64,000 nucleotides of DNA from an uncultured Candidatus Saccharibacteria bacterium (GTDB lineage: Bacteria; Patescibacteriota; Minisyncoccia; Phycocordibacterales; WO2-35-19). The notes beneath the pieces are model-generated. The model ran no database searches and was not told where the DNA came from. It saw only the letters and a program-made list of their open reading frames with translations. Below, piece after piece: positions 16,961-62,227 of the stretch; the stretch's first letter is position 1, and each line of letters begins with the position of its first letter. The translations under genes and the position numbers were made by a program. The stretch covers positions 110,098 to 174,097 of the forward strand of contig CAZPQX010000001.1 of assembly GCA_964589445.1 (NCBI GenBank), written 5' to 3'.

Positions 16961-17016
16961 GTTAAAAAATTAATTTAATATTAATAAAATTTAATCCTAT
17001 TAAATTAGATGTCAAA

Positions 17017-18392: not shown

Positions 18393-18409
18393 TTTTATAT
18401 TATTTTATT

Positions 18410-19681
18410 TTAATATTCTCTTGCAGAGACTTGAGTGTCTATTTTTTTAACTAAATCAATAACAACTGAAACTACAATAAGTATACCAGTTCCTCCGATA
18501 GCTACAGCGCTTATGCCTGTGAGTGCTCCTATAGCTATAGGTAATACTGCTATAGCACCAAGGAACAAAGCACCTACCATTGTAAGTCTGAAAAGTATAT
18601 TTGATATGTAGCTTGAAGTAGAGCTACCAGGTCTCACCCCTGGTATAAAGGCGCCACTTCTCTGCAAATTTTTAGATATACTGTCTGGATCAAAAGTAAC
18701 TGCTGTGTAAAAGTAAGTAAAGATAAATACGAGTAGGAAATATAGTGACCCGTAAAATGCCTTATTAGTAAGTAGAGCCAAAGCTGAAGTAGCAAAGGAG
18801 CTAATACTTTGATTTGTTACGTTTACCAAGAATCCCAAGATCATCTGAGGGAAAGTGATTATAGAAATCGCAAATATGAGAGGTATCACTCCTGACTGAT
18901 TAACCTTCAAAGGAAGGTAAGTAGAAACGCCACCATAAACTTTGTTACCTCTCACCTGCTTTGCATAAGTTACTGGTATTGGCCTCTCTGCTTCGTTGAT
19001 AACTACCACACCCCAAACAACAATAGCAGTGACTATGGCGAATCCAATATAAGATGGGAGTTGCGCTGGATCAAAAGCAAGCAAGAGTCTACTTACAGCA
19101 CCAGGAAGGGCTGACACAATACCTGCGAAAATTATAAGAGAAAGACCATTACCAAGACCAAATTCAGTGATAAGTTCACCTATCCACATGATAAGCATAG
19201 AGCCAGCTGCTATGATTATCAGGTTTGTCAAAAGTTCAAAAGGAGCAAGTGGAGCCAAAACCCCCTGATTTTGCAAAAGTGCCATAAAAGAATAACCTTG
19301 TATAAAAGCTAGAGGCACTGTAAGGAGTCTCGAGTATTGAGAAAATTTGCGTCTACCCATTTCCCCTTCCTCTTGGTACATCTCTTTAAGACGAGGCCAC
19401 ATCACAGTAAGAAGCTGCATTATGATAGAAGCTGTGATACTTGGAGAAACTCCGAGCATGACAATAGAGAGGTTTGAAAGACCTCCTCCAGAAAATATAT
19501 TTAGAAGACCAAAAAAGTCATTACCAGAAACAAACTGTTCAAGCCTCATGGTATCTATACCTGGTATAGGGATCACCGCCAAAAACCTAAAGACAATAAG
19601 AAGAACTGCTGTAAAAAATATCCTCTTCATTAAAACAGCATCCTCGATAACAAGCCTAATTTTATGCATGAAGCCGTTCAT
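18410..19681 (-). CDS. secY: Preprotein translocase subunit SecY
   Basis: 423 aa, 10 TM helices, conserved SecY plug and lateral gate regions; follows rplO. Confidence 0.9.
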   Translation of the reverse strand: MNGFMHKIRLVIEDAVLMKRIFFTAVLLIVFRFLAVIPIPGIDTMRLEQFVSGNDFFGLLNIFSGGGLSNLSIVMLGVSPSITASIIMQLLTVMWPRLKEMYQEEGEMGRRKFSQYSRLLTVPLAFIQGYSFMALLQNQGVLAPLAPFELLTNLIIIAAGSMLIMWIGELITEFGLGNGLSLIIFAGIVSALPGAVSRLLLAFDPAQLPSYIGFAIVTAIVVWGVVVINEAERPIPVTYAKQVRGNKVYGGVSTYLPLKVNQSGVIPLIFAISIITFPQMILGFLVNVTNQSISSFATSALALLTNKAFYGSLYFLLVFIFTYFYTAVTFDPDSISKNLQRSGAFIPGVRPGSSTSSYISNILFRLTMVGALFLGAIAVLPIAIGALTGISAVAIGGTGILIVVSVVIDLVKKIDTQVSAREY

Positions 19682-20719: not shown

Positions 20720-21067
20720 TTAAAACTCGAGACCACCCTCTCTCGCCCCTTCTGCAAGAGCAGCGACAGAACCAGTATAAATATAACCTCCTCTATCAAA
20801 AACTACTTTGCTTATACCTTTTTCCTTTGCCTTTTTAGCAAGACTTGCACCAGTAGCCTTAGATCTAAGGACAGCAGTCTTTTCTTTTACTGACATACTT
20901 GTTTCAGAAGCAAGAGTCACACCCTTGGTGTCGTCTATGATTTGAGCACTTATGTACCTATTTGATTTAAAAACACTGAGTCTAGGCCTCTCTGTTGTGC
21001 CAAAAACCTTAGCCCTGATGCGCTTTTGTCTTCTTTCTCTTTTTTGTTTTTTATTTTTAGTATCCAT
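20720..21067 (-). CDS. rplR: 50S ribosomal protein L18
   Basis: [20 protein letters not shown]...[22 protein letters not shown]. Confidence 0.9.
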
Positions 21068-21087
21068 TTTGTTTTCTAAATTTTAGA

Positions 21088-21621
21088 TTAGACGTTTTTC
21101 TTACCCTGCTTCCTTCTTATGATTTCACCTTCGTATCTAAAACCCTTTCCCTTGTAAGGTTCTGGCTTTTTAAGGCTTCTTACTTTTGCTGCGAAGCTTC
21201 CTACAAGCTCCTTATCGCTTCCTGATACTGTAACCACATTTTTATCAGCTGTAACTGTAAGTTCTTTAGGTATTTCTACATTTACTGGGTGAGAAAAACC
21301 AAGGTTTAGTACTAGATTTGTGCCGTTAACTTGAGATTTGTAACCCACACCTTCAAGTATAAGTTTCTTTTGGAAACCTTCACTTACACCCTTTATCATG
21401 TTTTTTATGTGAGAAGCGTAAGTACCCCAAAGAGCCATCAAGTTGTTACTGTTTCTGATCGGAGTAAGCATTACCTGCTTACCATCTACTTTTATTTCTA
21501 TATCAGAAGTAAACTTCCTCTCAAGAGAACCCTTGGGACCTTTAGCAGTGAAAACACCCGAGTTGAATGATACTTCAACATTGTTTCCTGCCACTATTTC
21601 TTTTTTACCTATTCTGCTCAT
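21088..21621 (-). CDS. rplF: 50S ribosomal protein L6
   Basis: 177 aa, duplicated L6 alpha/beta domains (MSRIGKKEIVAG..., GVGYKSQVNGTNLVLNLGFSHPV). Confidence 0.9.
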   Translation of the reverse strand: MSRIGKKEIVAGNNVEVSFNSGVFTAKGPKGSLERKFTSDIEIKVDGKQVMLTPIRNSNNLMALWGTYASHIKNMIKGVSEGFQKKLILEGVGYKSQVNGTNLVLNLGFSHPVNVEIPKELTVTADKNVVTVSGSDKELVGSFAAKVRSLKKPEPYKGKGFRYEGEIIRRKQGKKNV

Positions 21622-24581: not shown

Positions 24582-25905
24582 AATAATTTTTCAAAAACTC
24601 CTGCTTATACTCCACGAAATTATCTTCGATAATAGACTCCCTTATTTTGTCTGTCATATTAACAACAAAATGTAAATTGTGAATAGTGGCGAGTGTAGCC
24701 GCCAGCATTTCCTTCGCCCTAAAAAGATGAGCGAGTATACTTCTATTATAATGAGTACAAGTATAACATTTGCACGAGTCATCTACTGGCCTCAGGTCAC
24801 TTCTAAAACTACTATTTAAAATTGAAATCCTGCCATGGATGGTGTGTAGGGTGCCATTGCGCGCCATCCTTGTCGGAGCCACACAGTCAAAAGTGTCACA
24901 ACCATTTTCAACCCCAAGGAAAATATCGATAGGCTCACCCACCCCCAAAAGGTGCCGCGGCTTTTCTTCGGGCAAAATTTCATTTACCCACCTCACAGCA
25001 GTACTCATGTCTTCTTTTATAAAAGTGCCTCCGATGCCGAAGCCGTCAAAATCGAGAGCAGCGATTTGTTTTGCACTCATCTTGCGAAGTTCTTCGTGCC
25101 TGCCACCTTGGACGATACCAAAAAGTTGTTGCCCTCTGGGACTTTCATTCTGCTCAGCAGGAGAAAAAATGTTCTTGAGAGCAACTTTCGGACCGTGAAT
25201 GACGGGAGAAGGAGGATATTTTTCAGCAGAAAAATAATCCGGTTGCTCGAGAGAATATTTTTTCTCCTGATGATTTTTCTGTAATATTTTATGCTCAACC
25301 AAACACCTCTTGGCCCAACGCTCGGTGCGCTCGATAGTTGATTTTATTTTTTCAAAAGAAGCGTGAGGAGAAGTGAATTCGTCGAGTGCAAAGATGATAT
25401 CCGCACCTATCTTACTCTGTATTTGCATCGAGTCTTCAGGCGACATAAACCTAGGGCTACCGTCTATTACAGATTTGAAGTGAACACCATCTTCAGTGAC
25501 TTTGGCCATTGAGCCCTCTTTTTCCTCTTCAATACTTTCTACCACCTCTCTTTCTGGGGAATCAGCCGAGACAAACTTACCTATACCACTACCACTCGCG
25601 ACACCAAGCGAAAAAGCCTGGAAGCCACCAGAGTCTGTCATAGTAGGAAGTTGCCAATTCATCATGCCGTGCAGACCTCCATTTTTTTCCACCAAATCTT
25701 CGCCTGGCTGCAAATGCAAGTGATATGTGTTGGCGAGCACTACCTGAGCGCCCAAATCTCTGACTTGCTCTGAAGTTACAGCTTTAACTGTGGCCTTTGT
25801 ACCTACAGGCACAAAGGCGGGGGTCTTGATACGCCCATGTACTGTCGATATCAAACCCGCCCGCCCTAGTGAACCTTTTAGTCTTTTTTCTATTTTAAAA
25901 CCCAT
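24571..25905 (-). CDS. tgt: Queuine tRNA-ribosyltransferase, carrying an in-frame insertion of about 45 aa
   Basis: DSGGFQ, LGVGEPIDIFLGVENGCDTFDCVAPTR and zinc site CKCYTCTHY; extra segment KKYSLEQPDYFSAEKYPPSPVIHGPKVALKNIFSPAEQ before LFGIVQGG. Confidence 0.9.
   Translation of the reverse strand: MGFKIEKRLKGSLGRAGLISTVHGRIKTPAFVPVGTKATVKAVTSEQVRDLGAQVVLANTYHLHLQPGEDLVEKNGGLHGMMNWQLPTMTDSGGFQAFSLGVASGSGIGKFVSADSPEREVVESIEEEKEGSMAKVTEDGVHFKSVIDGSPRFMSPEDSMQIQSKIGADIIFALDEFTSPHASFEKIKSTIERTERWAKRCLVEHKILQKNHQEKKYSLEQPDYFSAEKYPPSPVIHGPKVALKNIFSPAEQNESPRGQQLFGIVQGGRHEELRKMSAKQIAALDFDGFGIGGTFIKEDMSTAVRWVNEILPEEKPRHLLGVGEPIDIFLGVENGCDTFDCVAPTRMARNGTLHTIHGRISILNSSFRSDLRPVDDSCKCYTCTHYNRSILAHLFRAKEMLAATLATIHNLHFVVNMTDKIRESIIEDNFVEYKQEFLKNYYGI
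25158..25269. repeat. MITE-like palindromic element (type A), about 112 bp with 24-bp TIRs, inserted in-frame in tgt
   Basis: TIR caggagaaaaaatgttcttgagag / ctcgagagaatattttttctcctg (22/24 complementary); core gacgggagaaggaggatatttttcagcagaaaaataatccgg. Confidence 0.6.
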
Positions 25906-26409
25906 TTATTGTACGATCTGTGCAGGAGCAGCTTCAGTAGATACAAGCTCTACAGTAAAGACAAGAGTTGAATTTGGAGGTATTGGACCTACTTGTGCGG
26001 AGCCGTATCCGAGCTCAGGAGGTATTGTCATTGTCCTTGTACCACCAACTTTCATACCAGCAAATCCCTGCTCCCAACCTTTTATGACTTCACCAGCTCC
26101 AAGCACAAATTGGAAAGGCTGACCAAAGTCTTTTGAATTTTGAAGTACTGTGCCATCAGAGAGAGACAATATATAGTGCACAGTCACAAGATCGCCTTGT
26201 TTGACTTCTGCTCCATTGCCTGGAGTTAGGTCATTTATAACAACACCTGTCCCTGTATTTGTATCGGCGTTTATAGCGGCCGCTGCGTTTTCATCCATTT
26301 GATTTTTATTAGTAAATAAAGCAGTAATGCTTGAACCAAAAAGAGTGTACCCCGTGAAAGCTATTGCCGCAAACACAGCTACCCATTCGGCTTTAGATAA
26401 TTTTCTCAT
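25906..26409 (-). CDS. FKBP-type peptidyl-prolyl cis-trans isomerase with N-terminal signal/anchor
   Basis: GDLVTVHYILSLSDGTVLQNSKDFGQPFQFVLGAGEVIKGWEQGFAGMKVGG...TVELV. Confidence 0.8.
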   Translation of the reverse strand: MRKLSKAEWVAVFAAIAFTGYTLFGSSITALFTNKNQMDENAAAAINADTNTGTGVVINDLTPGNGAEVKQGDLVTVHYILSLSDGTVLQNSKDFGQPFQFVLGAGEVIKGWEQGFAGMKVGGTRTMTIPPELGYGSAQVGPIPPNSTLVFTVELVSTEAAPAQIVQ

Positions 26410-26506
26410 TTAAAAATGGTTAAAATTTTAAATTTTTACTTTTAATTTAACTTCACCCCATATTAACATATTGCCTTAATTATTTAAAACCAATAAAATT
26501 AGCAAT

Positions 26507-27574
26507 ATGAAAGAACAAAATGCCAGTATCACGCTAAGTGAAATATCCGAGTCAGCAGAAAGAAGGGTCGCCCTCATATCGCAAGAATTTAAAGCTGGAT
26601 TTGAGTTCGTAAAAAACTACCCCAAGTCCGTCACCTTTTTTGGTTCAGCGAGGACCAAGACGGGAGATGAATATTATGAAAAGGCACGTGACCTCGCCAA
26701 GATGATAGTCGAAAAGCTCCACTACTCTGTAGTCACAGGTGGAGGCCCAGGCATAATGGAAGCAGCCAACAGAGGTGCCTATGAAGCAGGTGGCAACTCC
26801 ATCGGCCTCACCATAGAGCTACCACACGAACAAGTGACCAACCCCTACATCACAAGCCAGATGGGCTTTCATTATTTTTTTAGCCGAAAGGTCTGTCTTT
26901 CTTTTTCTGCTGAAGCTTACATATTTTTCCCTGGAGGCTTCGGCACACTCGACGAGTTCCTTGAGATTATGACCCTAGTACAAACCAAAAAAATACCCGC
27001 CGCACCAATCATACTTTTTGGTGAAAAATACTGGCAACCTCTTGATAAGTTTTTTAAAGGCTTCCTCAGAGACAAAGGTATGATAGACGAGCTCGATACT
27101 TCCCTTTACCTCATATCGGACGATGAGGCAGAAATATTGAAACTTATCGAAAAGGCACCAGTAAGATTTGGCATAAAATACAACGACTCTTCCGAAAAAT
27201 ATCTAGAACAAAATGGTAAAAATGCGACAGGCCCCCTAAGTCAACTTTCAGAAAAGCACTGCGTACCTTGCGAAGGTGGCATGCCTCCCCTTTCAAAAAC
27301 AGAGTCCGAGGTACTACTCAAAGAAGTAGATGAGTGGACCTTGATGGGAGAAAAAGAAATTCTAAAAACTTACAAATTCGAAGATTTCAAAGAAGCCATG
27401 CAGTTTGTAGTAAATGTAGGCAAAATAGCAGAAAAAGAAGGACACCACCCAGATATAAAAATATTTGATTACAAAAAAGTCGAGATACGCATCTCGACTC
27501 ATGCTATCGACGGCCTCTCCGAAAACGACTTTATCCTTGCATCAAAAATCGACGAGCTTCTGAGAGATAAGTAA
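26507..27574 (+). CDS. Fusion protein: LOG-family (TIGR00730) domain + pterin-4a-carbinolamine dehydratase (PCD/DCoH) domain
   Basis: N-terminus VTGGGPGIMEAANRGA and FFPGGFGTLDEFLE (LOG signatures); C-terminus ...EGHHPDIKIFDYKKVEIRISTHAIDGLSENDFILASKIDEL (PCD signature). Confidence 0.7.
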   Translation: MKEQNASITLSEISESAERRVALISQEFKAGFEFVKNYPKSVTFFGSARTKTGDEYYEKARDLAKMIVEKLHYSVVTGGGPGIMEAANRGAYEAGGNSIGLTIELPHEQVTNPYITSQMGFHYFFSRKVCLSFSAEAYIFFPGGFGTLDEFLEIMTLVQTKKIPAAPIILFGEKYWQPLDKFFKGFLRDKGMIDELDTSLYLISDDEAEILKLIEKAPVRFGIKYNDSSEKYLEQNGKNATGPLSQLSEKHCVPCEGGMPPLSKTESEVLLKEVDEWTLMGEKEILKTYKFEDFKEAMQFVVNVGKIAEKEGHHPDIKIFDYKKVEIRISTHAIDGLSENDFILASKIDELLRDK

Positions 27575-27651
27575 ACAAAAAGACCGAGCACTCGCGCGTT
27601 CGGCCTCCGAAAATACCCGACTGAAAGAACTGAGTCTGCATCCACCACCGC

Positions 27652-28125
27652 CTACCCTCCCTTCGAAACCATAAATTTTGCGACAGCTTTTTCAACCAGA
27701 CCCCTGCTGCCGAATTTGAAAGTATGGACATCCCCTGCTGCCATAACAGGATTACTCTCCGGCTCAGGGATAAGTACGAAGGAGTTAGCGGAAACAACCT
27801 CAACACTCCAAACCACCGAAAGAGTCTTTGTGTGCAAAACCTGGACAACAGATAGGTTTTTCCGCCCAACCTCCTCTGTTTTATAAATCACATGGAAAAA
27901 CTCTCCCATACCCCATTCTCTTAGAGCTTCTTCATAAAAACCAACTAAGGCTCTAATAGAGAGATAAATCTCAAGTGCTGGTTGCATAGCAGTCTTTATC
28001 TGCTTAGTATTGTCAGGTTTGTTGCGAAACTTGGACCAAAGGGCCAAAAGATCCCTATCTGCCCAACCCCTGTCATTCATGAGGGCTTTTAATACCCCCC
28101 AGGCAGTAACCAAAAGAGACAGCAT
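27652..28125 (-). CDS. Hypothetical protein (157 aa), high-GC islet
   Basis: GGAGG RBS 8 nt upstream of the ATG; GC content well above host; no family recognised. Confidence 0.45.
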   Translation of the reverse strand: MLSLLVTAWGVLKALMNDRGWADRDLLALWSKFRNKPDNTKQIKTAMQPALEIYLSIRALVGFYEEALREWGMGEFFHVIYKTEEVGRKNLSVVQVLHTKTLSVVWSVEVVSANSFVLIPEPESNPVMAAGDVHTFKFGSRGLVEKAVAKFMVSKGG

Positions 28126-28244
28126 GTGAGCAAACCTCCAGAAATACTATTAAACACTTCATCAAATAAAGCAATAGTGCTGGCGCCCTGCCTATCCACA
28201 GCCTCACTTGCAAAAATACTTAAATATGCTATAATGTAGTAAGA

Positions 28245-28451
28245 ATGACCGACAAAAATCGGTACCCTAAGGTGGATCAGGCTCTTGCTGAGCTTAACCA
28301 CACCGAGCTGTCACGGCTCGGTAAAAAGGGGGCGGCATCAAGAAAAAGAAGGAAAAAGAAAGTTAACCCCTTCAGAATAAAATTCCTGCTTCGTGGAGCA
28401 GCAGAAGCTGAGCGCGAAGCAAACCTCGATGTTTGCCCCATCCCCGACTGA
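28245..28451 (+). CDS. Small basic hypothetical protein (68 aa, RKRRKKK stretch), high-GC
   Basis: TATAAT box 12 nt upstream; GC-rich hairpin terminator downstream (gagccgcccccgagcggctc). Confidence 0.3.
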   Translation: MTDKNRYPKVDQALAELNHTELSRLGKKGAASRKRRKKKVNPFRIKFLLRGAAEAEREANLDVCPIPD

Positions 28452-28500
28452 GATTAGAGCCGCCCCCGAGCGGCTCATTTCTTCGCCCAAAAATTCTAAA

Positions 28501-31242
28501 CTAAAGAGAGTATTTTTTCATTACCAACTCTTCGATCTCTTGGCGAGGTCGACCATACTTTTCATAAGACAGATTTTTCAAATGTTCTACCATGAGAGTG
28601 TCGCCCTTTTGAGGCGGCAAAACTTCCATATTGAAAGGTTTGGCTGGTTTTCCATTTACCAAAAGTCTTAGGTAAGCGTTGCGATTGTCTATATTCATCA
28701 GGTCACTCGCGGCAAAAATCGGAGCAAATTGTTTTTCTAAATATTCACTGTCTTCTGCCCCGACACGGAAGGCACAAATGGAGCCGACATTGCCGAAAAC
28801 TGCGTCTCTTATACCCTCTTCTATTTGAGCTATAAATTGGTGAGCGATATTGAGTGAGAGTTTGTACTTCCTAGCTTCAGAGAGGATAGTGGAAATGGAG
28901 TCGGTGGTGATATTTTGGAATTCGTCGATATATAAATAGAAAGGTGGCTGATGGGAGCCGAGCGAGTCAGCTCTCGAAAGTGCAGCCATGAGTATCTTGC
29001 CTACCAATATAAGCCCGATGAGGTTGGCATTTATGTCCCCTAGCCTACCTTTAGAAAGATTTACTAGGAGGATTTTTTTGTTATCCATGATGTCGCGGAA
29101 ATTGAAAGAAGATTTTTCTTGAGCGATGACGGGTCGCATGATTTCGTTGGCGAGGAAGACATCAAACTTGTTGGTCACATATTGCACATAGTTGGCGAGA
29201 CCCTGCTCACCGCTAGTCTTTTCTGCATTTACCCAAAACTGTTTTACTAAAGGATTTTTACATTTAGAAACCTTATAATCTCTATAAGTTTTGTCAGAAA
29301 GCACGCGCGACATGTCGACGAGAGTGTTGCCTGAGGCTGGGTCTTCCATCACGAGGAGTGCTGAGTTCCTAAAATACTGCTCGAAGGCTGGACCCATCGA
29401 CTCTGGCACATTGCCATAAAGCTTCCTGAAAATACTAAAGAGTTCGTTGACTACAAAAGTTTTTTGTTCTGGGAATCTTTCGTCATATTCGAGCATGTTG
29501 AGAGCCATCGGCCTCTCTGTAAAGCCTGGGTCGAAATATATGACATCATCCATCCTTTCCTTTGGGACATTTGCGAGCACATCTTGGATATCAGAGCCAT
29601 GAGGGTCGATCATACAAACACCATTACCCATTTTTATATCTTGGATAATCATATTTTTGAGCAAAGTAGACTTACCTGTGCCAGTCTGGCCTATACAATA
29701 AAAGTGTCGTAAGCGATCGTCTTCGGACATCTTGATTTGAGTCTCTACACTCCTATGTTTGTTTACCCCAAGCACGATACCTTCACCTGAAATATCGAGA
29801 GGTGCCTGTGCAGTCGCGGCTCTCGACTGACGGAGGCCTTCAGAGACTTTGAGGGCGCTAGTTTGGAAGTGCATAAAAGAAGTAATCTCTCTTATGTTCA
29901 TGGGCAAAAAAGAATCCTGATCAAAAATCCTAAAACTAAAATTCTTTACCAAGTTTCTCAAATTGCCTTTTTCTGACTTATGCCACTTTAGGGAATTGCC
30001 GAGAGTATTGTTGAACTGATTGAAACTGGACTTGATACTCTCCAAGATTTCTTCTGCCTCTTCTTGGGTAGCGGATGAAGCGAGCACTCTCAGGTTGCAG
30101 CGTACTATGGGTGTGGTTATCTTCCTGCCTATTTCTTCAATTACAGTTTGGTCTATCGGCTCTGGCTTCTTTGGCTCTTCGCCCTCTTTCTCTTTTGGTT
30201 TGGAAGGTCCAAACATACCCTTGAGCGTGTGGAATACTTCGCCTCCTACACTATCAGGAATATCGAGCGCTTCGCTTAGTGGTGCGCCTGCCTTTATTTT
30301 ATCTAAAGCCTTCCTATATTTTTTGATATACCTATCCCCGACTGGCGACCAAAGTAGCTGTATGGCAGCTCCTTCACCATCGCGATTTACTTTTGAAAAA
30401 CCAGAAATAATAAGGTTGAGCGGGTCATGACTAAAGCTTTCATAAGTCTTGAGTGGATAGATTGGATTTTTCTCAAAGAGTGCATAGCTGGCTGCAGTGT
30501 GGCCTGTCTCGTTGAAGATATTGTAGTCGTCGTTTTTTTCTTCTATTTTTGCATTATGGAAAATCGAGAGAATAGACTTTTCAAAAAGACCCTTCCTAGA
30601 TAAAGGCACGGCCACATAAAAAACTACTTCCTTAGAAAAGTTGGAGTTGGCTATCTCGAGTGATATCCAATTTTCTTCACCTTCCTTTGAAACCGAGAGC
30701 ATGCTCGCATAAAACTGCTCCATGCCAGAAATAATTTCTTCCAGCTTTACGTTTTCCTTTCCTTCTTCTTCTTTTATCAAAACTTGGTACAAGACCATGT
30801 TCATAATCTTCCACATCTTCTCTTTTTCACTCACGCCGGGGATGGTGAAGCCCTCTCTTATGTACTCAGAAACAAAACGATGGAAGTCGTCTGTGATATG
30901 AAAGTTTGAAAGCTTCTCGACGGCAGAAAGAGCATTTTTGATACCCTTCTCTTTGGCGAGCTTCACGAGCTCACTCACCTGCTTGTCGTGACTCTCGGGA
31001 GATAGTTTGACTATGAAATTTTCAACCTCATCTTGTGAAGCGTGGAATTCTGGGTGCACCACTTCTTCTGACTTCACAGTTTTGTATTCGGCGAGTGTCT
31101 CTCGTGCTAGAAAAACCGGGTCTTTGTTTATACCCACCTGCTCTAGAGCTTTTTCTTTTTCGGCGACAAGCCCACGCAAATAAGAAACCTCCTCCTCTGG
31201 GTTTTTGAACGGGGCTTCGGGCATTTTAAATTTGTAGTCCAT
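28501..31242 (-). CDS. Soluble TraG/VirD4/TrwB-family (FtsK/HerA superfamily) P-loop ATPase, 913 aa
   Basis: Walker A FYCIGQTGTGKSTLLKNMI...CMIDPHGS; TraG-D_C-like Walker B region PFYLYIDEFQNITT...ARKYKLSLNIAHQFIAQ; no N-terminal TM helices. Confidence 0.65.
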   Translation of the reverse strand: MDYKFKMPEAPFKNPEEEVSYLRGLVAEKEKALEQVGINKDPVFLARETLAEYKTVKSEEVVHPEFHASQDEVENFIVKLSPESHDKQVSELVKLAKEKGIKNALSAVEKLSNFHITDDFHRFVSEYIREGFTIPGVSEKEKMWKIMNMVLYQVLIKEEEGKENVKLEEIISGMEQFYASMLSVSKEGEENWISLEIANSNFSKEVVFYVAVPLSRKGLFEKSILSIFHNAKIEEKNDDYNIFNETGHTAASYALFEKNPIYPLKTYESFSHDPLNLIISGFSKVNRDGEGAAIQLLWSPVGDRYIKKYRKALDKIKAGAPLSEALDIPDSVGGEVFHTLKGMFGPSKPKEKEGEEPKKPEPIDQTVIEEIGRKITTPIVRCNLRVLASSATQEEAEEILESIKSSFNQFNNTLGNSLKWHKSEKGNLRNLVKNFSFRIFDQDSFLPMNIREITSFMHFQTSALKVSEGLRQSRAATAQAPLDISGEGIVLGVNKHRSVETQIKMSEDDRLRHFYCIGQTGTGKSTLLKNMIIQDIKMGNGVCMIDPHGSDIQDVLANVPKERMDDVIYFDPGFTERPMALNMLEYDERFPEQKTFVVNELFSIFRKLYGNVPESMGPAFEQYFRNSALLVMEDPASGNTLVDMSRVLSDKTYRDYKVSKCKNPLVKQFWVNAEKTSGEQGLANYVQYVTNKFDVFLANEIMRPVIAQEKSSFNFRDIMDNKKILLVNLSKGRLGDINANLIGLILVGKILMAALSRADSLGSHQPPFYLYIDEFQNITTDSISTILSEARKYKLSLNIAHQFIAQIEEGIRDAVFGNVGSICAFRVGAEDSEYLEKQFAPIFAASDLMNIDNRNAYLRLLVNGKPAKPFNMEVLPPQKGDTLMVEHLKNLSYEKYGRPRQEIEELVMKKYSL

Positions 31243-31313
31243 CTTCTTTTAAATTATACAAAAACAAAAGCGCTTTAAGAAGCGCTTGTTGTTTAAAAAC
31301 TCATGAAATAAAT

Positions 31314-31508
31314 TTACATAGGCATCGAGTTGTTGCTCTTTGGCTTCAAAGAAACCAAAGCAGAAACACCTACGAGTATGTAAACTATTCTTGGGATCCA
31401 TCCCATCATGCTCATGCCAAGGAAACCAAACAAATCGTTTTGGAAGAGTCCTACTAGGAGCCAGTTGATGCCCCCTATGATGAGAAGCCAAAATGCTATT
31501 TTGCTCAT
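31314..31508 (-). CDS. DUF378-family small membrane protein (start at internal MSKIAFWLL...)
   Basis: MSKIAFWLLIIGGINWLLVGLF matches the DUF378 signature (LLI.GG.NW.LVG). Confidence 0.55.
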   Translation of the reverse strand: MSKIAFWLLIIGGINWLLVGLFQNDLFGFLGMSMMGWIPRIVYILVGVSALVSLKPKSNNSMPM

Positions 31509-31671
31509 AAAAATTTGAGTTAGTGTTTTAATAAAAACGACCACTTTTAATACATCTAAATTATACGACACAATAGTTTTGAAATAAAACCAAAAATTGT
31601 GTATTATTCTGCTTGTCCGCTAAATGCGTTTGGTTTGGTAGGCTTGCCCCGCGAAGCTTTAGCGTAGTGGG

Positions 31672-31850
31672 GGCCCTATCGTAAACGGTTAGTCGCCTCC
31701 TCGGCGACCCGCCGAGGAGGCGGGGACGGAGCCTTCTCAAGACTTAAAGAGGGGTTGAATTGCGAAAGCTTGGAGCAATTCAAAGCCGGACTGAGCGGAG
31801 GCGAAGGAGGCGGGGTCGTGGAAATTTTTAGCAAAAAATTATCTGTGACC
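31672..31850 (+). pseudogene. tRNA-Glu-like unit 1, disrupted by GC-rich hairpin insertions in the D-loop and T-loop regions (probably non-functional)
   Basis: Starts ggccctatcgtaaacggttag, then a 31-nt perfect hairpin (cgcctcctcggcg accc gccgaggaggcg), then ggacggagccttctcaagactt (CUC anticodon loop) and a disrupted T arm; no matching 3' acceptor strand. Confidence 0.3.
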
Positions 31851-31887
31851 GATTCCCAAATCGAACGTTGTGTAGTAAAAATATATG

Positions 31888-32050
31888 GCCCTATCGTCTA
31901 ACGGTTAGGACGGAGCCTTCGAGAGGTGAGGTTGGGATATGGGACCCAACCGCAAGACCTTTTGAGAATTTTTATGAGTAGAACGAAATAAAAAGCCCAA
32001 AAGGTGTACAGCGACTGTAAGTCGGAAAATTCGGGTTCGATACAATTAAA
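31888..32050 (+). pseudogene. tRNA-Glu-like unit 2: first 33 nt identical in register to the intact tRNA (through U33), then about 115 nt of unrelated GC-rich sequence and a T-arm remnant
   Basis: ggccctatcgtctaacggttaggacggagcctt | cgagaggtgaggttggg... ttcgggttcgatac; no 3' acceptor complement. Confidence 0.3.
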
Positions 32051-32054
32051 TAAT

Positions 32055-32126
32055 GGCCTCATCGTCTAACGGTTAGGACGGAGCCTTCTCAAGGCTTAAA
32101 TCGGGGTTCGATTCCCCGTGAGGTCA
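32055..32126 (+). tRNA. tRNA-Glu (anticodon CUC), 72 nt, CCA not encoded
   Basis: Cloverleaf by hand: acceptor ggcctca/tgaggtc (one G-U), D stem gtct/ggac, anticodon stem gagcc/ggctt with loop ttCTCaa, T arm cgggg-ttcgatt-ccccg. Confidence 0.75.
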
Positions 32127-32160
32127 CATTCAACAGCTAGCACGAGAAGCGTGCGAAATA

Positions 32161-32859
32161 ATGCTTCTTTACTGCCGAAGTTTTGTACATAATTACATTA
32201 TGAAGGAACACTTTGACAAAAATAAACGCCAGATATTGATGACAATTACACATCTGAATCGTTTTCATCTGCGCGCAGTAAGAAAAGATACTAAAGTAAG
32301 TGAAATTAGTTTAGATAATATTTTTGCAAAAATTATTATAGGGCTCTGGGTATCTCTATTAGAGGTTGAGTATGAATTATTAAACAGTAAAGTTGGATTA
32401 AAAAAAGAAAAAGATTCTTTAAAAGATAAATATTTGAAATTGTTAGATAGATTGTTTCAAGAAAAGTATTTAAATAATAGCGGAAAAGATATTAACCAAA
32501 GGAATTTAGGTCACGATAGTTATCATCGTTACAAAACTCTTAATGACATTATAAATAATGAATTAGCTAATTATATTGAGATTAGAAATAAAATAGCTCA
32601 TGGTCAATGGCATGTTGCTTTTTCAGATTCCGGAAAGGTTAATAATGACATAACCGCACATGTATGGAAATTATCTAAAAAAGATCTCCTCATTCTGAAA
32701 ACACTTGTCATAAATATACCTGCAATTTTAAATATTCTTTTTCAAAGCAAGAAAACTTTTGAAAGAGATTTTAATAAAATAATAAATAAAGTCTTATTAT
32801 CAAAAGAAGATAATGAAATCAGGTTTGGCTGGCTAAAAAATAAAGCTAGGAAAATATGA
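32161..32859 (+). CDS. Rx4H (HEPN-type) motif protein A, Abi-like; possible start at 32200 (MKEHFDK)
   Basis: ...ELANYIEIRNKIAHGQWHV... contains R-N-K-I-A-H in an alpha-helical context, resembling the RNxxAH signature of Abi_2/AbiD-type HEPN proteins; AT-rich accessory DNA next to a tRNA. Confidence 0.5.
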   Translation: MLLYCRSFVHNYIMKEHFDKNKRQILMTITHLNRFHLRAVRKDTKVSEISLDNIFAKIIIGLWVSLLEVEYELLNSKVGLKKEKDSLKDKYLKLLDRLFQEKYLNNSGKDINQRNLGHDSYHRYKTLNDIINNELANYIEIRNKIAHGQWHVAFSDSGKVNNDITAHVWKLSKKDLLILKTLVINIPAILNILFQSKKTFERDFNKIINKVLLSKEDNEIRFGWLKNKARKI

Positions 32860-33515
32860 GCCTTCTAGAAAATAAACCCAATAGTAAAGAGGAAAAAGTT
32901 CTAGAACTTTTCTATAATAGATTTTACGATTTGTACGAGGAATTATATCAAGAGGAGTTTTTTAAGAGAGAAGAATCCTACAGATTCTATCGAATACGAG
33001 AAATCTTTTCTGTATACAAAGAACTACTAGGGTATGAACCAATCCAATACTATATTAAATATGTTAAAAATGGGGGTAGACCACCTCTTGAGGGTTTAAT
33101 TGTTGATGATCTTTTTAGTTTTGTAAGAAACCTACTTCTACACTTTCCAGTTTTTGATAAATGGGAAGATGTTTACATAAGTAAAGATTTAGCTACTTGG
33201 AATAAAGTAGGTACTATTCATAAGTTTCTATTAAAAAGCAGTAAAATAAAAATCGATGATAGTGGAGTTATAAAATATAGGATATGGGAAAAGAGCAAAA
33301 AGCTAATGACTTATATTCAATTCCACTTACCAGAAGAATACAACGATAGTAGAAAAATATTCCTTAAAGAGGTTATTTCTGAAACAGATGGTATCAAACT
33401 TTGCATATCTTTTATGAAGCAAGTTCTAGATACACAAGTTCATTCTAATACTGAGGAGGATATTGTAATAATGTCTCAAGTTTACATGCCAATTCCTGAA
33501 ACTAGAAATCCATAG
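32856..33515 (+). CDS. Rx4H (HEPN-type) motif protein B, translationally coupled to protein A (ATGA overlap)
   Basis: ...DLFSFVRNLLLHFPVFDKWE... contains R-N-L-L-L-H; 4-nt overlap with the upstream gene. Confidence 0.5.
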   Translation: MSLLENKPNSKEEKVLELFYNRFYDLYEELYQEEFFKREESYRFYRIREIFSVYKELLGYEPIQYYIKYVKNGGRPPLEGLIVDDLFSFVRNLLLHFPVFDKWEDVYISKDLATWNKVGTIHKFLLKSSKIKIDDSGVIKYRIWEKSKKLMTYIQFHLPEEYNDSRKIFLKEVISETDGIKLCISFMKQVLDTQVHSNTEEDIVIMSQVYMPIPETRNP

Positions 33516-33679
33516 TCGCACGGGAAGGGTCATTAGAAACTTAATAACGTTACTCAGAATAACCTTACTGGACAACAAATCAGACAGGTTCTATCTCGAG
33601 AAGGCTCACCTTTTAGAGAGCGCTCGGGAAGGATATGAAAATTGGAGACTTTTTTCATTAAAAATGTATAATTTATTAA

Positions 33680-34303
33680 ATGGAATTTGTCTATATAGGT
33701 TTTGGATGGCTACTGGGTCTTTTAGCCCCAGCAACCACAAAACGGATTGCGGATCATTATGAAAAACAGAATCTTGAAAAGATTATTCTTAATGACATAA
33801 AAGATTTAAAGAAAAGACTCGGGGGAATACCCTATCTTGTATACCCTAAGCACGGAAAATTAAATCAAGAGATTTTTAATTGGATTAAAAGTAATTCTAG
33901 TATTGACTTCGATACCGGATTAACGCAACTTGCTGAACAAGGATTAACTGAGACCCAGATAATAAATCATCTAAATACAATAGGACAACAAGATGTAACA
34001 ACAACATACTTTAAGAAAGTAAACCTTTTTGCGACAGACTCTCATCTTACTAAATTAAGTTTAATTGAAAATAATCTAATGGAGAAAATTTTAGAGATAA
34101 AATTCCATGTACAAGCACTAAATGAAGACATCGATAGTTTTAGGGATGATCTAAAAATGACGTTTATGCCAGGAATCACTCCACAAAATCATATAATAGT
34201 ATCGGTTGAAATTGATAAAAAGAGTTTAATGATTGCAAAAAAGTCTATGTTTATAGTTGATAAAATTAATGAAATTCTATTCTCTCGAAAAGGGTCGAAA
34301 TAA
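33680..34303 (+). CDS. Hypothetical membrane-anchored protein (1 N-terminal TM helix), third gene of the accessory island
   Basis: MEFVYIGFGWLLGLLAPATT... TM helix, then a soluble domain with no recognised family; TGTATAAT box at 33657-33664. Confidence 0.45.
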   Translation: MEFVYIGFGWLLGLLAPATTKRIADHYEKQNLEKIILNDIKDLKKRLGGIPYLVYPKHGKLNQEIFNWIKSNSSIDFDTGLTQLAEQGLTETQIINHLNTIGQQDVTTTYFKKVNLFATDSHLTKLSLIENNLMEKILEIKFHVQALNEDIDSFRDDLKMTFMPGITPQNHIIVSVEIDKKSLMIAKKSMFIVDKINEILFSRKGSK

Positions 34304-34376
34304 TATACTTAAAAAACTTTAAATAGCCTTACGGAACAATGAACCCTGAGGCTCTATCTTGCTATACGCCCACAAA

Positions 34377-34405
34377 TTGACAATTACTTAATTTAGGAGT
34401 ATAAA
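34377..34405 (+). promoter_or_regulatory. Sigma70-like promoter TTGACA-17-TATAAA, followed by a 15-aa uORF (34422-34469, MKKLLGKDVCVYEKK) whose TGA overlaps the ATG of the downstream gene
   Basis: ttgaca(34377-82) attacttaatttaggag tataaa(34400-05); AGGAG RBS; ATGA coupling at 34466-34469. Confidence 0.35.
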
Positions 34406-34465
34406 AAAATAGGAGTACCTCATGAAAAAACTACTAGGTAAAGATGTTTGTGTATATGAGAAAAA

Positions 34466-35035
34466 ATGAATACGACTAATAGAACACAACAGCTCTGCGA
34501 CGCCCTCAAACAAGGCGCACCCTGGGGTTCACTCGCAAGATTCCTCGACACGATCAATTTGATCGAAGAATTGGAACAATTGGCCCCTATACTCCATGGA
34601 TCAAATAAAGCGGATCTAGCCGAGTACTACAAGGAGAACCTCCTTCGGTGGCCTGACCCCCAATTGCCGGCAGGGTTCAGCGAGAAGTACCCCCTGTTCT
34701 CTGCACGGCTAGATACACCAGGAAAAATTCGCATTCTTTTGCGGGGTGCATACTACCGCGATGTCCCCCCAGAAATTATGGGCGATGTTTTCGAAGAGAT
34801 CATCCGCCGTCACGAGGTGGAAGGCGAGAGAAAAATCGTTTATCGCAACTACCGCAACACTACGCGCGATCGCGCTTTGCGAATCGTATACCACACCCAG
34901 CTCCCATACTGGACCCTGACGGAACTGGCCCTGAATGGAATGCCCAACGTCGGCATTTCTACCAAAGAAGGTCTCTTCCTCGATTGGAGAACAAAAGAGG
35001 AGAGACTCGCAGCCGGCGAAACCGTGTATTCATAG
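34466..35035 (+). CDS. Hypothetical protein (189 aa), high-GC islet
   Basis: Abrupt GC jump exactly at the start codon; terminator with the same 3' end (ggcggattttgtt) as the 8140 gene. Confidence 0.5.
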   Translation: MNTTNRTQQLCDALKQGAPWGSLARFLDTINLIEELEQLAPILHGSNKADLAEYYKENLLRWPDPQLPAGFSEKYPLFSARLDTPGKIRILLRGAYYRDVPPEIMGDVFEEIIRRHEVEGERKIVYRNYRNTTRDRALRIVYHTQLPYWTLTELALNGMPNVGISTKEGLFLDWRTKEERLAAGETVYS

Positions 35036-35042
35036 TCAATTA

Positions 35043-35090
35043 GCCGCCCACAACAGGACAAGATCCGTTGGAGGGCGGATTTTGTTATCT
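35043..35090 (+). terminator. Rho-independent terminator
   Basis: gccgccc...ggagggcgg hairpin + attttgttatct; the 3' half is nearly identical to the terminator at 8890-8911. Confidence 0.45.
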
Positions 35091-35328
35091 AAATTTTCCA
35101 TAAGAATAGTTTATTCCTAAATAAACTTATTTTCAAAAACCTACCCCCCCATTGACTTCCCCATCATTTGAAGGCCGGCGGCTTTTTTTAAAAAATTCCA
35201 AATATCCCCTTCAAAAATTCAACAAATTTGTGGAGAAGAAATAATAATCAAAATTCTCTTTACAAAGTTTAAAAATACTTGCAAAACTGTATTGGCCTGA
35301 TAAGATCTGCAACGGAAAGGAGAAAGCC

Positions 35329-35553
35329 ATGAAGGTTTGCCCACATCGTGGTGAAAAATTCTCTAAGCGCAGGTGGGATAGAGAGACCAACCCACCCAAG
35401 ATGCGCTGTGCATCGTGCAGTGTCACTCTATTTTCCAGAGAAGGAATCCTAGACACCTGGGAATTTCTTCATCCTCCCGACGAAGGAGGGATAGGGAAAA
35501 AGCTGAATAAGCAAAAACCCAAAGAAGAACCTTCGTTCGGGGAGGAATACTAG
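35329..35553 (+). CDS. Small zinc-ribbon-like protein (74 aa)
   Basis: GGAGAAAGCC-ATG RBS; CPHRGEKF...CASCS Cys/His pairs. Confidence 0.4.
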   Translation: MKVCPHRGEKFSKRRWDRETNPPKMRCASCSVTLFSREGILDTWEFLHPPDEGGIGKKLNKQKPKEEPSFGEEY

Positions 35554-35682
35554 AACCTAAGTCTCCCTCACCCCCCTCAGCCGCCGCCCCACCACGGGCG
35601 ACCTTTCTTTTTCTCCTCTTTTTATCGCCTTGACACACCATATTTAATATTGTAATTTCTTAAAAGAAAGGCTTTTCATCAT

Positions 35683-35970
35683 ATGGGGAAATTAGGAGTT
35701 GAGCCTCAGACCGAGGCCATGATCCTGGAGAACTTAGGTAAGTCTCTCCAGACACTTCGAGATGAAAATCCCGAAGCCACCTTCGACAAAGAATTGGTCG
35801 AGGCGATTTGCTTAGAGCGAGTGTTCCCTCATCAAGCAGCAGGCCTGCTTGGAATGACAGAAGACGCCTCGCTCGACTTGTTTTTTGGGCTGTTTCGCCA
35901 AGAGTCGTCGCGACAGGAGTTCTTCTCGTTCTACGTGGTGCGGTGGAAGCAGAAGCACCAAGAACACTAA
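35683..35970 (+). CDS. Hypothetical protein (95 aa), high-GC; N-terminus MGKLGVEPQTE similar to the 8140 gene (MGKSGVEPEGK)
   Basis: About 45 nt spanning RBS and start are conserved with 8100-8160 (aaaagaaagg....catcatgggaaaatcaggagt.ga.cc). Confidence 0.4.
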   Translation: MGKLGVEPQTEAMILENLGKSLQTLRDENPEATFDKELVEAICLERVFPHQAAGLLGMTEDASLDLFFGLFRQESSRQEFFSFYVVRWKQKHQEH

Positions 35971-36069
35971 AACGAACCCCTCGCCCGCCGCGCCCACAAG
36001 GCCGGCGGCTTTCTTTTTGTTAAAATTTTAAGTCCCCCGCCCCAACCCACAATTTGCTATAATATACTC

Positions 36070-36402
36070 ATGAATCAAAATACTTTTAAATTTAAAAAAT
36101 GGTTTGGGAGGGTTTTAGGAGCTATGTTAGTTTTTGTACCAAATTTTGTCTATGCATTTTCTTTTGAATTCGTACAACAAAGCAACTACTCCGCTAGTAG
36201 CCCAGCAGGGCTCATCTCGGGGCTGTGGCATGGCATGATAGCCCCTTGGTCTCTCATCGCAAGATGGTTTTTTAGTGACATTGGGCTATATGCCTTTTCC
36301 AACACGGGCTGGTTTTATGATGCTGGCTTCCTCATTGGAGCTGGTGGCTCTATCCCTCTCGGCTGGCTCGCAGCCATAATCGCTACAATAGCAATGTTTT
36401 AA
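36070..36402 (+). CDS. Hypothetical membrane protein
   Basis: 3 predicted TM helices, low-GC host-like composition. Confidence 0.4.
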   Translation: MNQNTFKFKKWFGRVLGAMLVFVPNFVYAFSFEFVQQSNYSASSPAGLISGLWHGMIAPWSLIARWFFSDIGLYAFSNTGWFYDAGFLIGAGGSIPLGWLAAIIATIAMF

Positions 36403-36406
36403 ATAT

Positions 36407-36811
36407 ATGAACGAAACCTATATCTACAACGACCTGGTCAAGCCATTTTGGTCTCCTCCATCATGGATATTTGGTCCAGTGTGGAGCGTTTTGTATTTTA
36501 TAATAGCAATATCTTTCAGTACCATATTTTATAAAGCAATCAAAAAGGAAATCCCTTTCGCAACAGCCCTACCCTTTATACTCAATCTACTTTTCAACTT
36601 TTTGTTTACCCCGCTCCAATTTGGAATACAAAACAACATCTTGGCTTCTGTAGACATATTGCTAGTACTCGCGACCCTTGTCTGGGCACTCCTCACTGTG
36701 TATAAAAAGCACAAAAACCTACGCTGGATAGCCTACGCCAACATACCCTATTTGCTTTGGGTGACTTTCGCGACTTTTTTACAACTCACCATCACTTATT
36801 TGAATATGTAA
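36407..36811 (+). CDS. TspO/MBR-family (tryptophan-rich sensory protein) membrane protein
   Basis: FWSPPSWIFGPVWSVLYFIIAIS...LNLLFNFLFTPLQFG matches the TspO signature. Confidence 0.65.
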   Translation: MNETYIYNDLVKPFWSPPSWIFGPVWSVLYFIIAISFSTIFYKAIKKEIPFATALPFILNLLFNFLFTPLQFGIQNNILASVDILLVLATLVWALLTVYKKHKNLRWIAYANIPYLLWVTFATFLQLTITYLNM

Positions 36812-36856
36812 AAAAGCTTGTAATAAAATATGATAAAATATTTTTATTAAAATAAT

Positions 36857-37180
36857 TTGAAAGGTATGACAAATTCAAACCCAGCTATTGAAGCACTCAA
36901 AAGAGAGATCGAAAAAGAAGTACAAGAACTTAAAGAAAAACAAAACGAACAAAGGAAAAAAGACTCTGAGTTATCACGCAAAAAACAAGAATACGAGCGC
37001 AAACAAGCTGAGGCTGACAAACTAAAAAAGGAGCTTGAAGATTTGGAAAAGGAAGTAAACGATATTAAGTCAGATATACAGAAGCTAGAACAAGAAAGGA
37101 CGAACAAAGAATCTTCTTTAAGGGAGATGCAGCAAGAACTTGCAAATTCAATAAAAGAATCTGAAAAAGACAAAAAATAG
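36857..37180 (+). CDS. Coiled-coil hypothetical protein
   Basis: Continuous E/K/Q-rich heptad pattern over about 100 aa. Confidence 0.4.
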   Translation: MKGMTNSNPAIEALKREIEKEVQELKEKQNEQRKKDSELSRKKQEYERKQAEADKLKKELEDLEKEVNDIKSDIQKLEQERTNKESSLREMQQELANSIKESEKDKK

Positions 37181-37501
37181 GTAAAATTTTTAGACAAAGA
37201 AAAAGACGCTGTAGTGTTGCAAGTCACCGCAGCGCCTCGTCGAAAGTTTCCGTACTTATCCCCCGGGGAGGGGGCCCTAATGACTACCAGTCCTAGTCTG
37301 ATAGGCACCAGAAACATTCGAACAAAATCAAATCTAAACTATTTATTTAAAAAGTCAACAAAAATAAAGAGGGGTGTGGTACAGGGACAGAAACCACGAC
37401 CCCTCAGTGCTCACTTACTCTAACCTCCCACGAGGGTCGAGTGGCCACCATGGCTGAATGGCTGTGAGCTATATTGAGTATTAAATATAATAGATTTTTT
37501 G

Positions 37502-61980: not shown

Positions 61981-62227
61981 AACATTTTATAAATATTTAA
62001 TGTATTTAAGTATAGACTAAACACAATAACACTCAACTCTGAATTAGCCTTATCTCTTCATCTTTTCTTCATGATTGCTTTTACCACCCAAATCCCCCAT
62101 TTGGCAATTTAAGACTATTTTGTTAATATGATTTTGTTCTTTAAAAGAGAATATTTTGTCTTAAAGTTTTTTACAAAACTTTAGTGACACATTCCGCGGT
62201 AGCTCAGCTGGTAGAGCGGCGAGCTGT

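Follow-up and report, generated by a model that had tools for sequence, protein, structure and literature searches.

Several known systems place short structured sequences in or beside genes. Repetitive extragenic palindromic sequences and bacterial interspersed mosaic elements (REP/BIME), miniature inverted-repeat transposable elements (MITEs) and the palindromic elements of Rickettsia are short, free of open reading frames (ORFs) and hairpin-forming, and they lie between or within genes, often just 3′ of coding genes. Transfer RNA (tRNA) can itself act as a carrier, as in the engineered tRNA scaffolds used for RNA expression and in the tRNA-like/microRNA fusion transcripts of gammaherpesviruses. 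Integrating elements generate partial tRNA genes (van der Gulik et al. 2023, PMC9897764), and in the candidate phyla radiation (CPR) more than half of the insertions in ribosomal RNA (rRNA) genes fall outside what Rfam recognises as group I introns (Tsurumaki et al. 2024, PMC11270868). Here we analyse a stretch of 64,000 nucleotides (nt) from contig CAZPQX010000001.1 of an uncultured patescibacterial genome, hereafter the window, in which three tRNA-Glu-like units stand in tandem and one of the extra units carries a three-hairpin RNA module. The local array is a modest example. The broader result is an abundant, covarying RNA module tied to stable-RNA genes in Patescibacteria.

Only the third of the three units is a tRNA gene. 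The units lie at 31672–32127 on the + strand and open with GGCCCTATCGT, GGCCCTATCGT and GGCCTCATCGT at 31672, 31887 and 32055. ARAGORN and the Rfam tRNA model RF00005 each leave units 1 and 2 uncalled, and their sole call is 32055–32127, a complete tRNA-Glu(CUC). The initial annotation had placed three units here and taken the third alone for a whole tRNA, and both points hold. With introns allowed and thresholds relaxed, ARAGORN returned nothing for units 1 and 2 on the + strand, so the intron-containing tRNA folds that the annotation had considered do not appear; the same settings recovered an intron-split tRNA-Asn at 62193–62861. A search of the 64-kilobase (kb) window for the acceptor 3′ strand TAGGGCC, and for a T arm together with an acceptor, was negative on the + strand. 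The array is not an assembly artefact, because an independently assembled Logan contig (L001) is identical to the window over 25212–32111. Labels of this form denote the metagenome or Logan contigs and loci compared with the window.

Unit 2 is a tRNA-Glu fragment that runs into the module. Its 5′ part is identical to the working gene through C34 except at acceptor positions 5–6 (94% over 36 nt, 31885–31920 against 32053–32088); the identity through U33 claimed earlier therefore stands, and extends by a nucleotide, but fails at those two positions. After tRNA positions 1–34 comes GAG-AGG, then the 104-nt insert. Its layout is GAGGUGAG, hairpin 1, CGCAAGAC, hairpin 2, GUGUACAGC and hairpin 3, and its parts in the window read GA-GAGGTGAG, hairpin 1, CGCAAGAC(C), hairpin 2, (G)GTGTACAGC and hairpin 3 with a GTA loop. 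The insert is a three-hairpin module rather than the GC-rich hairpin described at first, with a GC content of 44%. Its sequence blocks, its covarying stems and its score of 87.6 bits qualify it for the family captured by our covariance model, R1. The tail that follows matches the real tRNA at 87% (32027–32041 against 32098–32112), and unit 2 has no anticodon-stem 3′ strand, T-stem 3′ strand or acceptor 3′ strand.

The module is a large family of structured RNA in Patescibacteria, one that we found neither in Rfam nor described before in the literature searched. A scan with the pattern GAGGTGAG-N(12–30)-CGCAAGAC-N(25–55)-GTGTACMGC detected the module in 94 metagenome stretches and gave 0 matches on the viral contigs scanned. 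From 56 diverse copies we built R1, which defines the family by GAGGUGAG, a hairpin, CGCAAGAC, a long hairpin, GUGUAC(A/C)GC and a hairpin of 5 base pairs (bp) with a GUA loop. R1 has 111 matches in 703 kb of the metagenome DNA analysed and 9 significant matches in 1.27 Mb of Parcubacteria loci. Rfam 15 returned no relevant match at E up to 10 in 31400–32300 or in L046, a distant carrier described below, and none at E up to 0.05 in 20 module-bearing loci.

Covariation supports the structure throughout the family. In the family alignment, 98.1% of cells hold standard pairs, compared with 81.1% in shuffles. Changes on both sides have occurred in 14 of the 17 pairs, amounting to 286 cells, and none of 500 shuffles (0/500) reaches these values. 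Sliding the partner columns lowers pairing to 31–57%. A comparison of the window with L004 and the distant L046 likewise finds double changes in 13 of 29 predicted pairs. At the junctions, some 25 nucleotides are conserved. Three sequence blocks were set by the search pattern, so that their invariance among pattern matches is partly by construction; they vary only slightly in R1 matches that lie outside the pattern (L007, L061, L024, L028, L063).

Folding also separates the two strands. Of the segments compared, 122 fold better as the sense strand and 26 as the antisense strand (p = 1.7e-16), a bias in predicted structure that points to a transcript. A significant closing helix encloses about one third of the copies and is not universal: 27 of 75 have z below −2. 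A P1-like stem, in which an upstream CCUY would pair with the GAGG of the module, was dropped as a general feature, since it occurs at 33 of 76 copies as against 23 of 76 in a distant-sequence control and about 20 of 76 in shuffles, no enrichment over controls.

By our estimate, module copies are found at tRNA genes more often than tRNA density would predict. About one sixth of the unique copies are fused to a same-strand tRNA gene or fragment or lie no more than 300 nt away from one, a share that we estimate to be well above expectation; about 83% adjoin no tRNA. Where an intact neighbour allows comparison, the insertion point falls right after GAGG or GGG, with 2–3 nt replaced. The module occupies the anticodon arm in tRNA-Glu (window, L004, L085, L097, L104, L174), tRNA-Phe (L165) and tRNA-Arg (L169, L134), the variable loop in tRNA-Ile (L122) and the T-loop in tRNA-Gly (L086), and modules are also nested in the loops of other modules (L086, L146, L122, L157). 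Taking the module together with a second element family, family B, introduced below, the anticodon, variable, T and D loops of tRNA hosts are all occupied, in extra copies and in many Patescibacteria.

The six tRNA-Glu chimeras that have a neighbouring tRNA are built alike. They share the same junctions, and their tails end just after the T-loop remnant GTTCGA, less clearly so in L085. Because the tRNA-derived parts of each chimera resemble its own neighbouring tRNA, local origin or gene conversion is indicated. Some degeneration is visible in these parts: L097 has lost the D stem, L104 and L174 hold large extra inserts, and no chimera has an acceptor stem.

Other stable RNAs also carry the elements. 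In L028 (− strand, 16825–17413), a transfer-messenger RNA (tmRNA) at 16997–17413 (Rfam, 98 bits) has a module-like element 30 nt downstream. Copies of the acceptor and T-arm sequences of the tmRNA enclose this element, so that the module is borne on a tRNA-like minihelix. Carriers with an acceptor-stem copy of the adjacent tmRNA or tRNA as their closure occur in L024, L028 and L103. A further tmRNA-associated module-like element lies at 12173–12315 in L024. In tandem 5S rRNA genes, the module or family B interrupts an additional copy or fragment (L100, 9549–10129; L069, ~20800–21200; L037, ~18300–18800), and the 5S region of L069 holds two inserts in opposite orientations.

Beyond these hosts, module copies lie between unrelated housekeeping genes, often a few nucleotides past a stop codon. 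No conserved gene neighbourhood emerged; the neighbours include genes that, from reading their sequences, we take to be gatB, ligA, ftsA and an RNase J-like gene. In L046 (− strand, 14855–15045) the module forms the core of a stand-alone RNA that is about 190 nt long and has a terminator of its own; the fold of this RNA has z = −4.6 against shuffles. This type of RNA has conserved 5′ GGAUGCAGUUCGAGG and 3′ GAGCGAAGC motifs, and similar RNAs occur in L082, L102, L111 and L149. We considered tmRNA, RNase P RNA and signal recognition particle (SRP) RNA as identities for it and rejected them, as neither ARAGORN nor Rfam gave support.

Unit 1 is a fuller pseudo-tRNA-Glu interrupted by two inserts. 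Its anticodon arm has the loop TTCTCAA and one mismatch in the stem, and the region matches the real tRNA at 87% over 38 nt (31724–31761 against 32076–32113). The T-stem 5′ strand (31750–31754) is accompanied by a degenerate 3′ strand (CCCAA), and there is no acceptor 3′ strand. The hairpin in its D-loop is perfect and GC-rich, as the initial annotation described it, with arms of 13 rather than 12 bp. The second insert does lie in the T-loop, following the T-stem 5′ strand, but as a whole it has 47% GC, and only 31784–31818 is GC-rich (74%). That stretch and the D-loop hairpin are the only GC-rich insert sequences, so that the earlier picture of GC-rich inserts holds for these two alone; the window as a whole has 40.4% GC. 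The motif suggested for a wider search, gccgaggaggcgg, is confined to unit 1 in the window, except for one occurrence in an ordinary terminator at 8890.

GC-rich inverted repeats similar to the D-loop hairpin, with a GGCGGG(G) end, occur in the D-loops of L174 and L143; a strict inverted-repeat census of GC hairpins was uninformative. At ~10640–10830 of L143 (− strand), the D-loop of one tRNA contains a second and complete one, tRNA-Thr(GGU), which is flanked by a GC-rich inverted repeat, CCTGCCCGCC... / ...GGCAGGCGGGG, of the same kind as the unit 1 hairpin.

The T-loop insert of unit 1 represents family B. It opens with a hairpin at 31755–31783 (TTGAATTGC-GAAAGCTTGGA-GCAATTCAA) that resembles hairpin 1 of the module, continues with the GC-rich stretch AGCCGGACTGAGCGGAGGCGAAGGAGGCGGGGTCG and the hairpin AAATTTTTAGCAAAAAATT, and closes with GTGACCGATT. 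The family layout is a hairpin, AGCCGGAGYGAGCG..GGCGGGGUCG, an AAAUUUUUAGCAAAAAAUU hairpin and GUGACCGAUU, and it recurs in L061, L076, L037, L069, L029, L067, L072 and L068. R1 gives the unit 1 insert 2 bits only, and it is not a member of the module family. In L029, L099 and L069, family B starts with the module's own 5′ part (UGAG, hairpin 1, CGCAAG); the two families are therefore related. Table 1 lists the features of the array and its surroundings.

Table 1. Features of the tRNA-Glu array and its flanks, in window coordinates
Feature	Position	Strand	Description
Unit 1 pseudo-tRNA-Glu	31672..31859	+	Acceptor 5′ strand, D arm with insert, anticodon arm, T-stem 5′ strand, T-loop with large insert
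Unit 1 D-loop hairpin	31693..31723	+	81% GC; perfect 13-bp arms, 31694–31706 / 31710–31722
Unit 1 T-loop insert (family B)	31755..31854	+	100 nt, 47% GC; directly after T-stem 5′ strand
Unit 2 5′ part	31887..31920	+	tRNA-Glu positions 1–34: acceptor 5′ strand, D arm, anticodon-stem 5′ strand, loop to C34
Unit 2 insert (three-hairpin module)	31921..32024	+	104 nt, 44% GC; model R1 87.6 bits, E 8e-26, over 31909–32030
Unit 2 tail	32025..32043	+	Remnant of tRNA positions ~44–58: variable loop, T-stem 5′ strand, T-loop
Unit 3, functional tRNA-Glu(CUC)	32055..32127	+	ARAGORN call; Rfam tRNA 60.7 bits; orthologue at same position in L002–L014
Sigma-70-like promoter (TTGAAA, 17 nt, TATTAT)	31579..31607	+	10/12 matches; only good promoter match upstream of array
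Leader motif GCTTGCCCCGCGAAGCTTTAGCGTAGTGG	31642..31670	+	Just 5′ of unit 1; conserved
Accessory island	32128..37480	.	5.3 kb between tRNA-Glu and PBP2 gene; 8 ORFs

The same window holds a group I intron to whose core the module's layout bears a weak resemblance. Its tRNA-Asn(GUU) gene (62193–62861, + strand) is split by a 595-nt group I intron (Rfam match 62535–62815, 64.5 bits). In the Rfam alignment of this intron, GAGGUG is the P3 5′ strand, followed by P4/P5, by P6 as GC-CAA-GACC...GGU-AAG-GU and by GUAGAGACUA (J6/7 and P7). The module has, for comparison, GAGGUGAG, hairpin 1, C-GC-AAG-ACC...GGU-GUACA-GC and hairpin 3. When the intron region was scanned with R1, the best match was the colinear P3–P7 stretch (62578–62718), a weak one (6.8 bits, E 0.016). 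Intron ancestry of the module is accordingly put forward here as a lead drawn from sequence layout, not as a result, and any such link would concern ancestry only: the module is not a member of the group I introns. The 5′ part of the tRNA-Asn intron holds an HNH-type endonuclease ORF, and plain ARAGORN misses the gene, which is found only with introns allowed. The metagenome loci analysed yielded no further tRNA-type introns.

An intron-split tRNA in this very genome, together with the shared layout, speaks for the notion that units 1 and 2 are real tRNA genes from which the inserts are removed, by self-splicing or by an endonuclease and ligase. The anatomy of the units makes this extremely improbable. 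Neither has an acceptor 3′ strand or a proper T-stem 3′ strand, unit 2 is also without the anticodon-stem 3′ strand, and the relaxed intron-aware search of the + strand was empty. RF00028, the group I core model, has no match at E up to 10 in 31400–32300, and the module lacks P1–P2, P8, P9 and a 3′ splice site. An archaeal-type (bulge-helix-bulge) intron was rejected on the sequence after the inserts, which has no anticodon-stem 3′ strand in unit 2 and no acceptor 3′ strand in either unit. A tRNA split by a group I intron was rejected for both units as well, as no pair of exons joining into a cloverleaf was called and RF00028 is silent.

The reading that we favour, at about an even chance, is that units 1 and 2 are dead partial tRNA-Glu copies carrying intron-like structured RNA elements, transcribed with the real tRNA, which RNase P would free. 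Extra partial copies of tRNA-Glu, placed between the ancestral promoter and the working tRNA-Glu(CUC), would have been colonised by small structured RNA elements; unit 2 would consist of tRNA positions 1–34/40, the 104-nt module and tRNA positions 44–58, and unit 1 would be a nearly whole copy with a GC hairpin in its D-loop and a 100-nt element in its T-loop. The elements would be intron-derived or intron-like insertions, entering stable-RNA genes at exposed loops, immediately behind RAGG or GGG. Because they have neither the rest of a ribozyme core nor a 3′ exon, such inserts could not be spliced out, and the invaded copies would be dead as tRNAs. They would have no separate function. Redundant partial copies beside an intact gene would act as safe harbours in which the elements persist. 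The whole array would be transcribed from the promoter at 31579–31607, and an RNase P cut at 32055 would release the real tRNA. What the sequences show is the anatomy, the family membership, the covariation, the strand bias, the repeated architecture at other loci and the lack of extra units in close relatives; intron ancestry, mobility, co-transcription and the want of a separate function are inferred. One suggestion of the initial annotation, mobile hairpins that target tRNA loops, survives in part: both large inserts belong to families that recur in stable-RNA loops, but the main element is not a GC-rich hairpin and occurs once in the window.

Several observations weigh against this account. 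The resemblance to group I introns is weak, at the 6.8 bits given above, the 23S-type group I intron in L100 shows no similarity to the module, and RF00028 does not match the array. For mobility, R1 offers only a single copy in the 64-kb window. Copies on the same contig have diverged with compensated changes and are not near-identical (L109 against L144), and we found no terminal (inverted) repeats or target duplications of the element. Elements run antisense to their 5S host in two cases, and L069 has both orientations, which is a poor fit with an RNA-level route of insertion. The orthologue of unit 2 counts against the reading too. L004 has the same arrangement, with 56 nt of tRNA-like sequence and junction identical to the window (the 5′ part, 31887–31920, is 100% identical to its counterpart) and compensatory changes in all three hairpins of the insert. 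A structure kept through compensatory changes beside 56 identical nucleotides looks like selection in place, that is, function, and not like a decaying relic.

Function of this kind is the core of a second explanation, the main rival, in which the chimeras are working non-coding RNAs on a tRNA scaffold. The module would be active, for example as a binding platform or small ribozyme, and the tRNA pieces would supply transcription, folding and processing by RNase P or RNase Z beside the real tRNA. We regard this as possible though rather unlikely. It would account for the strong structural selection, which includes the orthologous copies in the window and L004, for the sense-strand bias, and for the retention of one architecture across at least six diverged loci in otherwise streamlined genomes. 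Also in its favour are the carriers closed by an acceptor-stem copy of their neighbour (L024, L028, L103), the very stable stand-alone RNAs of about 190 nt typified by L046, the significant closing helix around a third of the copies and the compensated divergence of same-contig paralogues. The closest relatives argue otherwise: in L002, L003 and L006 tRNA-Glu(CUC) comes straight after the promoter and the extra units are absent, so these are dispensable. Moreover, the tRNA parts of L097, L104 and L174 are partly degenerate, no chimera keeps an acceptor stem, and the tRNA-like parts track the neighbouring gene as they would under gene conversion, so that their conservation need not mean function. 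The lack of a consistent gene neighbourhood gives no hint of a role, and the elements antisense to 5S fragments are likewise unexpected of a domesticated RNA.

The array lies at the edge of an accessory island, as the initial annotation had it: 5.3 kb are wedged between tRNA-Glu and the PBP2 gene, which adjoin each other in 9 related loci. None of the 8 island ORFs has a homologue in 14 related loci, and the island holds the lowest GC in the window (31.6% over 32001–34000). Two of the ORFs match the phage protein families phrog_12663 and phrog_30702, neither of which has a known function. The end of the Logan contig falls within the tRNA T-loop, at 32111, which fits population variation at that point. 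Between the island on the 3′ side and the extra units on the 5′ side we see no link beyond the shared hot spot.

Such a hot spot bears on a third explanation, already offered in the initial annotation, that the units are stacked attachment-site scars. Integrative elements would have recombined repeatedly in tRNA-Glu loops, and the inserts would be their leftover ends after internal deletions, miniature and mobilised only in cis. We judge this improbable. That tRNA-Glu is an integration hot spot is supported by the island here and by L004, where positions 1–780 (shown on the − strand) hold what we take, from reading its translation, to be a fragment of a large serine recombinase gene, on the opposite strand and immediately downstream of the orthologous tRNA-Glu(CUC); its presence there suggests integration of a different element at this hot spot. 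The junctions in the anticodon and T loops fall at classic crossover sublocations (Williams 2002, as cited in PMC9897764), tRNA-segment direct repeats flank the inserts (34 nt here; 3′-end copies in L174, L024 and L028), and partial tRNA genes made by integration are common (PMC9897764). Yet the repeats at 31887–31920 and 32055–32088 bound only 134 nt, free of ORFs. Pfam and PHROGs scans found no integrase among the flanking and window ORFs, and no second copy of the tRNA 3′ end (attR) exists in the 64 kb at up to 3 mismatches. The duplicated 5′ parts lie upstream, whereas integration normally moves 3′ parts to the far end of an island, and a tail made of tRNA positions 44–58 is what simple insertion into a gene copy would leave. 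The architecture recurs in at least six other loci, and the roughly 83% of module copies that adjoin no tRNA are hard to derive from attachment sites. Covariation and strand bias, finally, indicate a folded transcript, not recombinase binding sites.

The upstream region retains signals seen at tRNA-Glu in other genomes. A homologous promoter stands directly before tRNA-Glu in L002, L003 and L006. The leader motif lies directly upstream of tRNA-Glu in L014 (8668–8692; 92% over 25 nt). It also occurs in L129 (11670–11698; 93% over 29 nt), where it stands after a terminator. The short motif common to these places, GCTTGCCCCGCGAAGCTTTAGCG, thus precedes tRNA-Glu-type units in two genomes, those of the window and L014. 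A 913-amino-acid ATPase gene adjoining the array is 75% identical to genes in Candidatus Zambryskibacteria assemblies, and the organism is a Zambryskibacteria-like member of the Patescibacteria/Parcubacteria.

The module bears on how small genomes accommodate insertions. For all their tiny size and streamlining, the genomes of Patescibacteria put up with numerous insertions in stable-RNA genes. Surveys of these insertions have so far covered rRNA only and left over half unclassified; tRNA loci now prove to be affected too, and an RNA module has come to light that is abundant, covaries strongly, has about 25 conserved nucleotides at its junctions and finds no match in Rfam. We propose tentatively, and with more doubt than conviction, that the module and family B form an unrecognised class of miniature ORF-less RNA elements in Patescibacteria, derived from the group I core and either still mobile, entering tRNA, tmRNA and 5S loops after RAGG or GGG, or domesticated as a small ribozyme or binding module on tRNA scaffolds. 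A module that is a group I intron relative in miniature would be informative about the decay, spread or reuse of introns in bacteria. A module that works as an RNA on tRNA scaffolds would be a new class of non-coding RNA in a major, poorly understood branch of life. In practice, units of this type can mislead tRNA annotation and cause assemblies to break at tRNA genes.

Among described systems, partial tRNA genes derived from integrating elements (PMC9897764) resemble the array in having partial copies beside an intact gene, junctions in loops and the same tRNA at the border of an island. They differ in that here the 5′ parts lie 134–215 nt upstream with no genes, integrase or displaced 3′ end, and what lies in between is a folded RNA module, conserved and present also far from tRNAs. 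The CPR rRNA insertions (PMC11270868) come from the same bacterial group and likewise lie in the loops of stable-RNA genes. Those insertions occupy working 16S and 23S genes and are cut out of the transcript, whereas the hosts here are broken extra copies of tRNA, 5S and tmRNA ends; that study mentions neither tRNA nor the module.

Group I introns located within tRNA genes share with the module their insertion into tRNA loops, and such introns are abundant in this bacterial group. The likeness extends to a colinear series of motifs: first GAGGUG (the P3 5′ strand), then a hairpin where P4/P5 would be, GC-AAG-ACC...GGU...GC in the position of P6, and lastly GUGUA-AG with a GUAA hairpin. The module, however, measures about 100 nt where an intron has 250 or more, and besides P1–P2, P8 and P9 it lacks a P3 partner strand at the canonical place and a 3′ exon after it.

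tRNA-scaffolded RNAs are comparable in that a structured RNA is fused to tRNA-derived sequence beside tRNA-processing sites. The chimeras described here have no acceptor stem, so that recognition by RNase P or RNase Z would need the neighbouring intact tRNA. Like REP/BIME sequences and MITEs, the module is short, ORF-less, hairpin-forming and scattered, often 3′ of genes. It departs from them in that we found no terminal inverted repeats or target duplications, and in the compensated divergence of copies on one contig. With about 25 conserved nucleotides at its junctions, the module is more like a ribozyme or an aptamer than like these palindromes.

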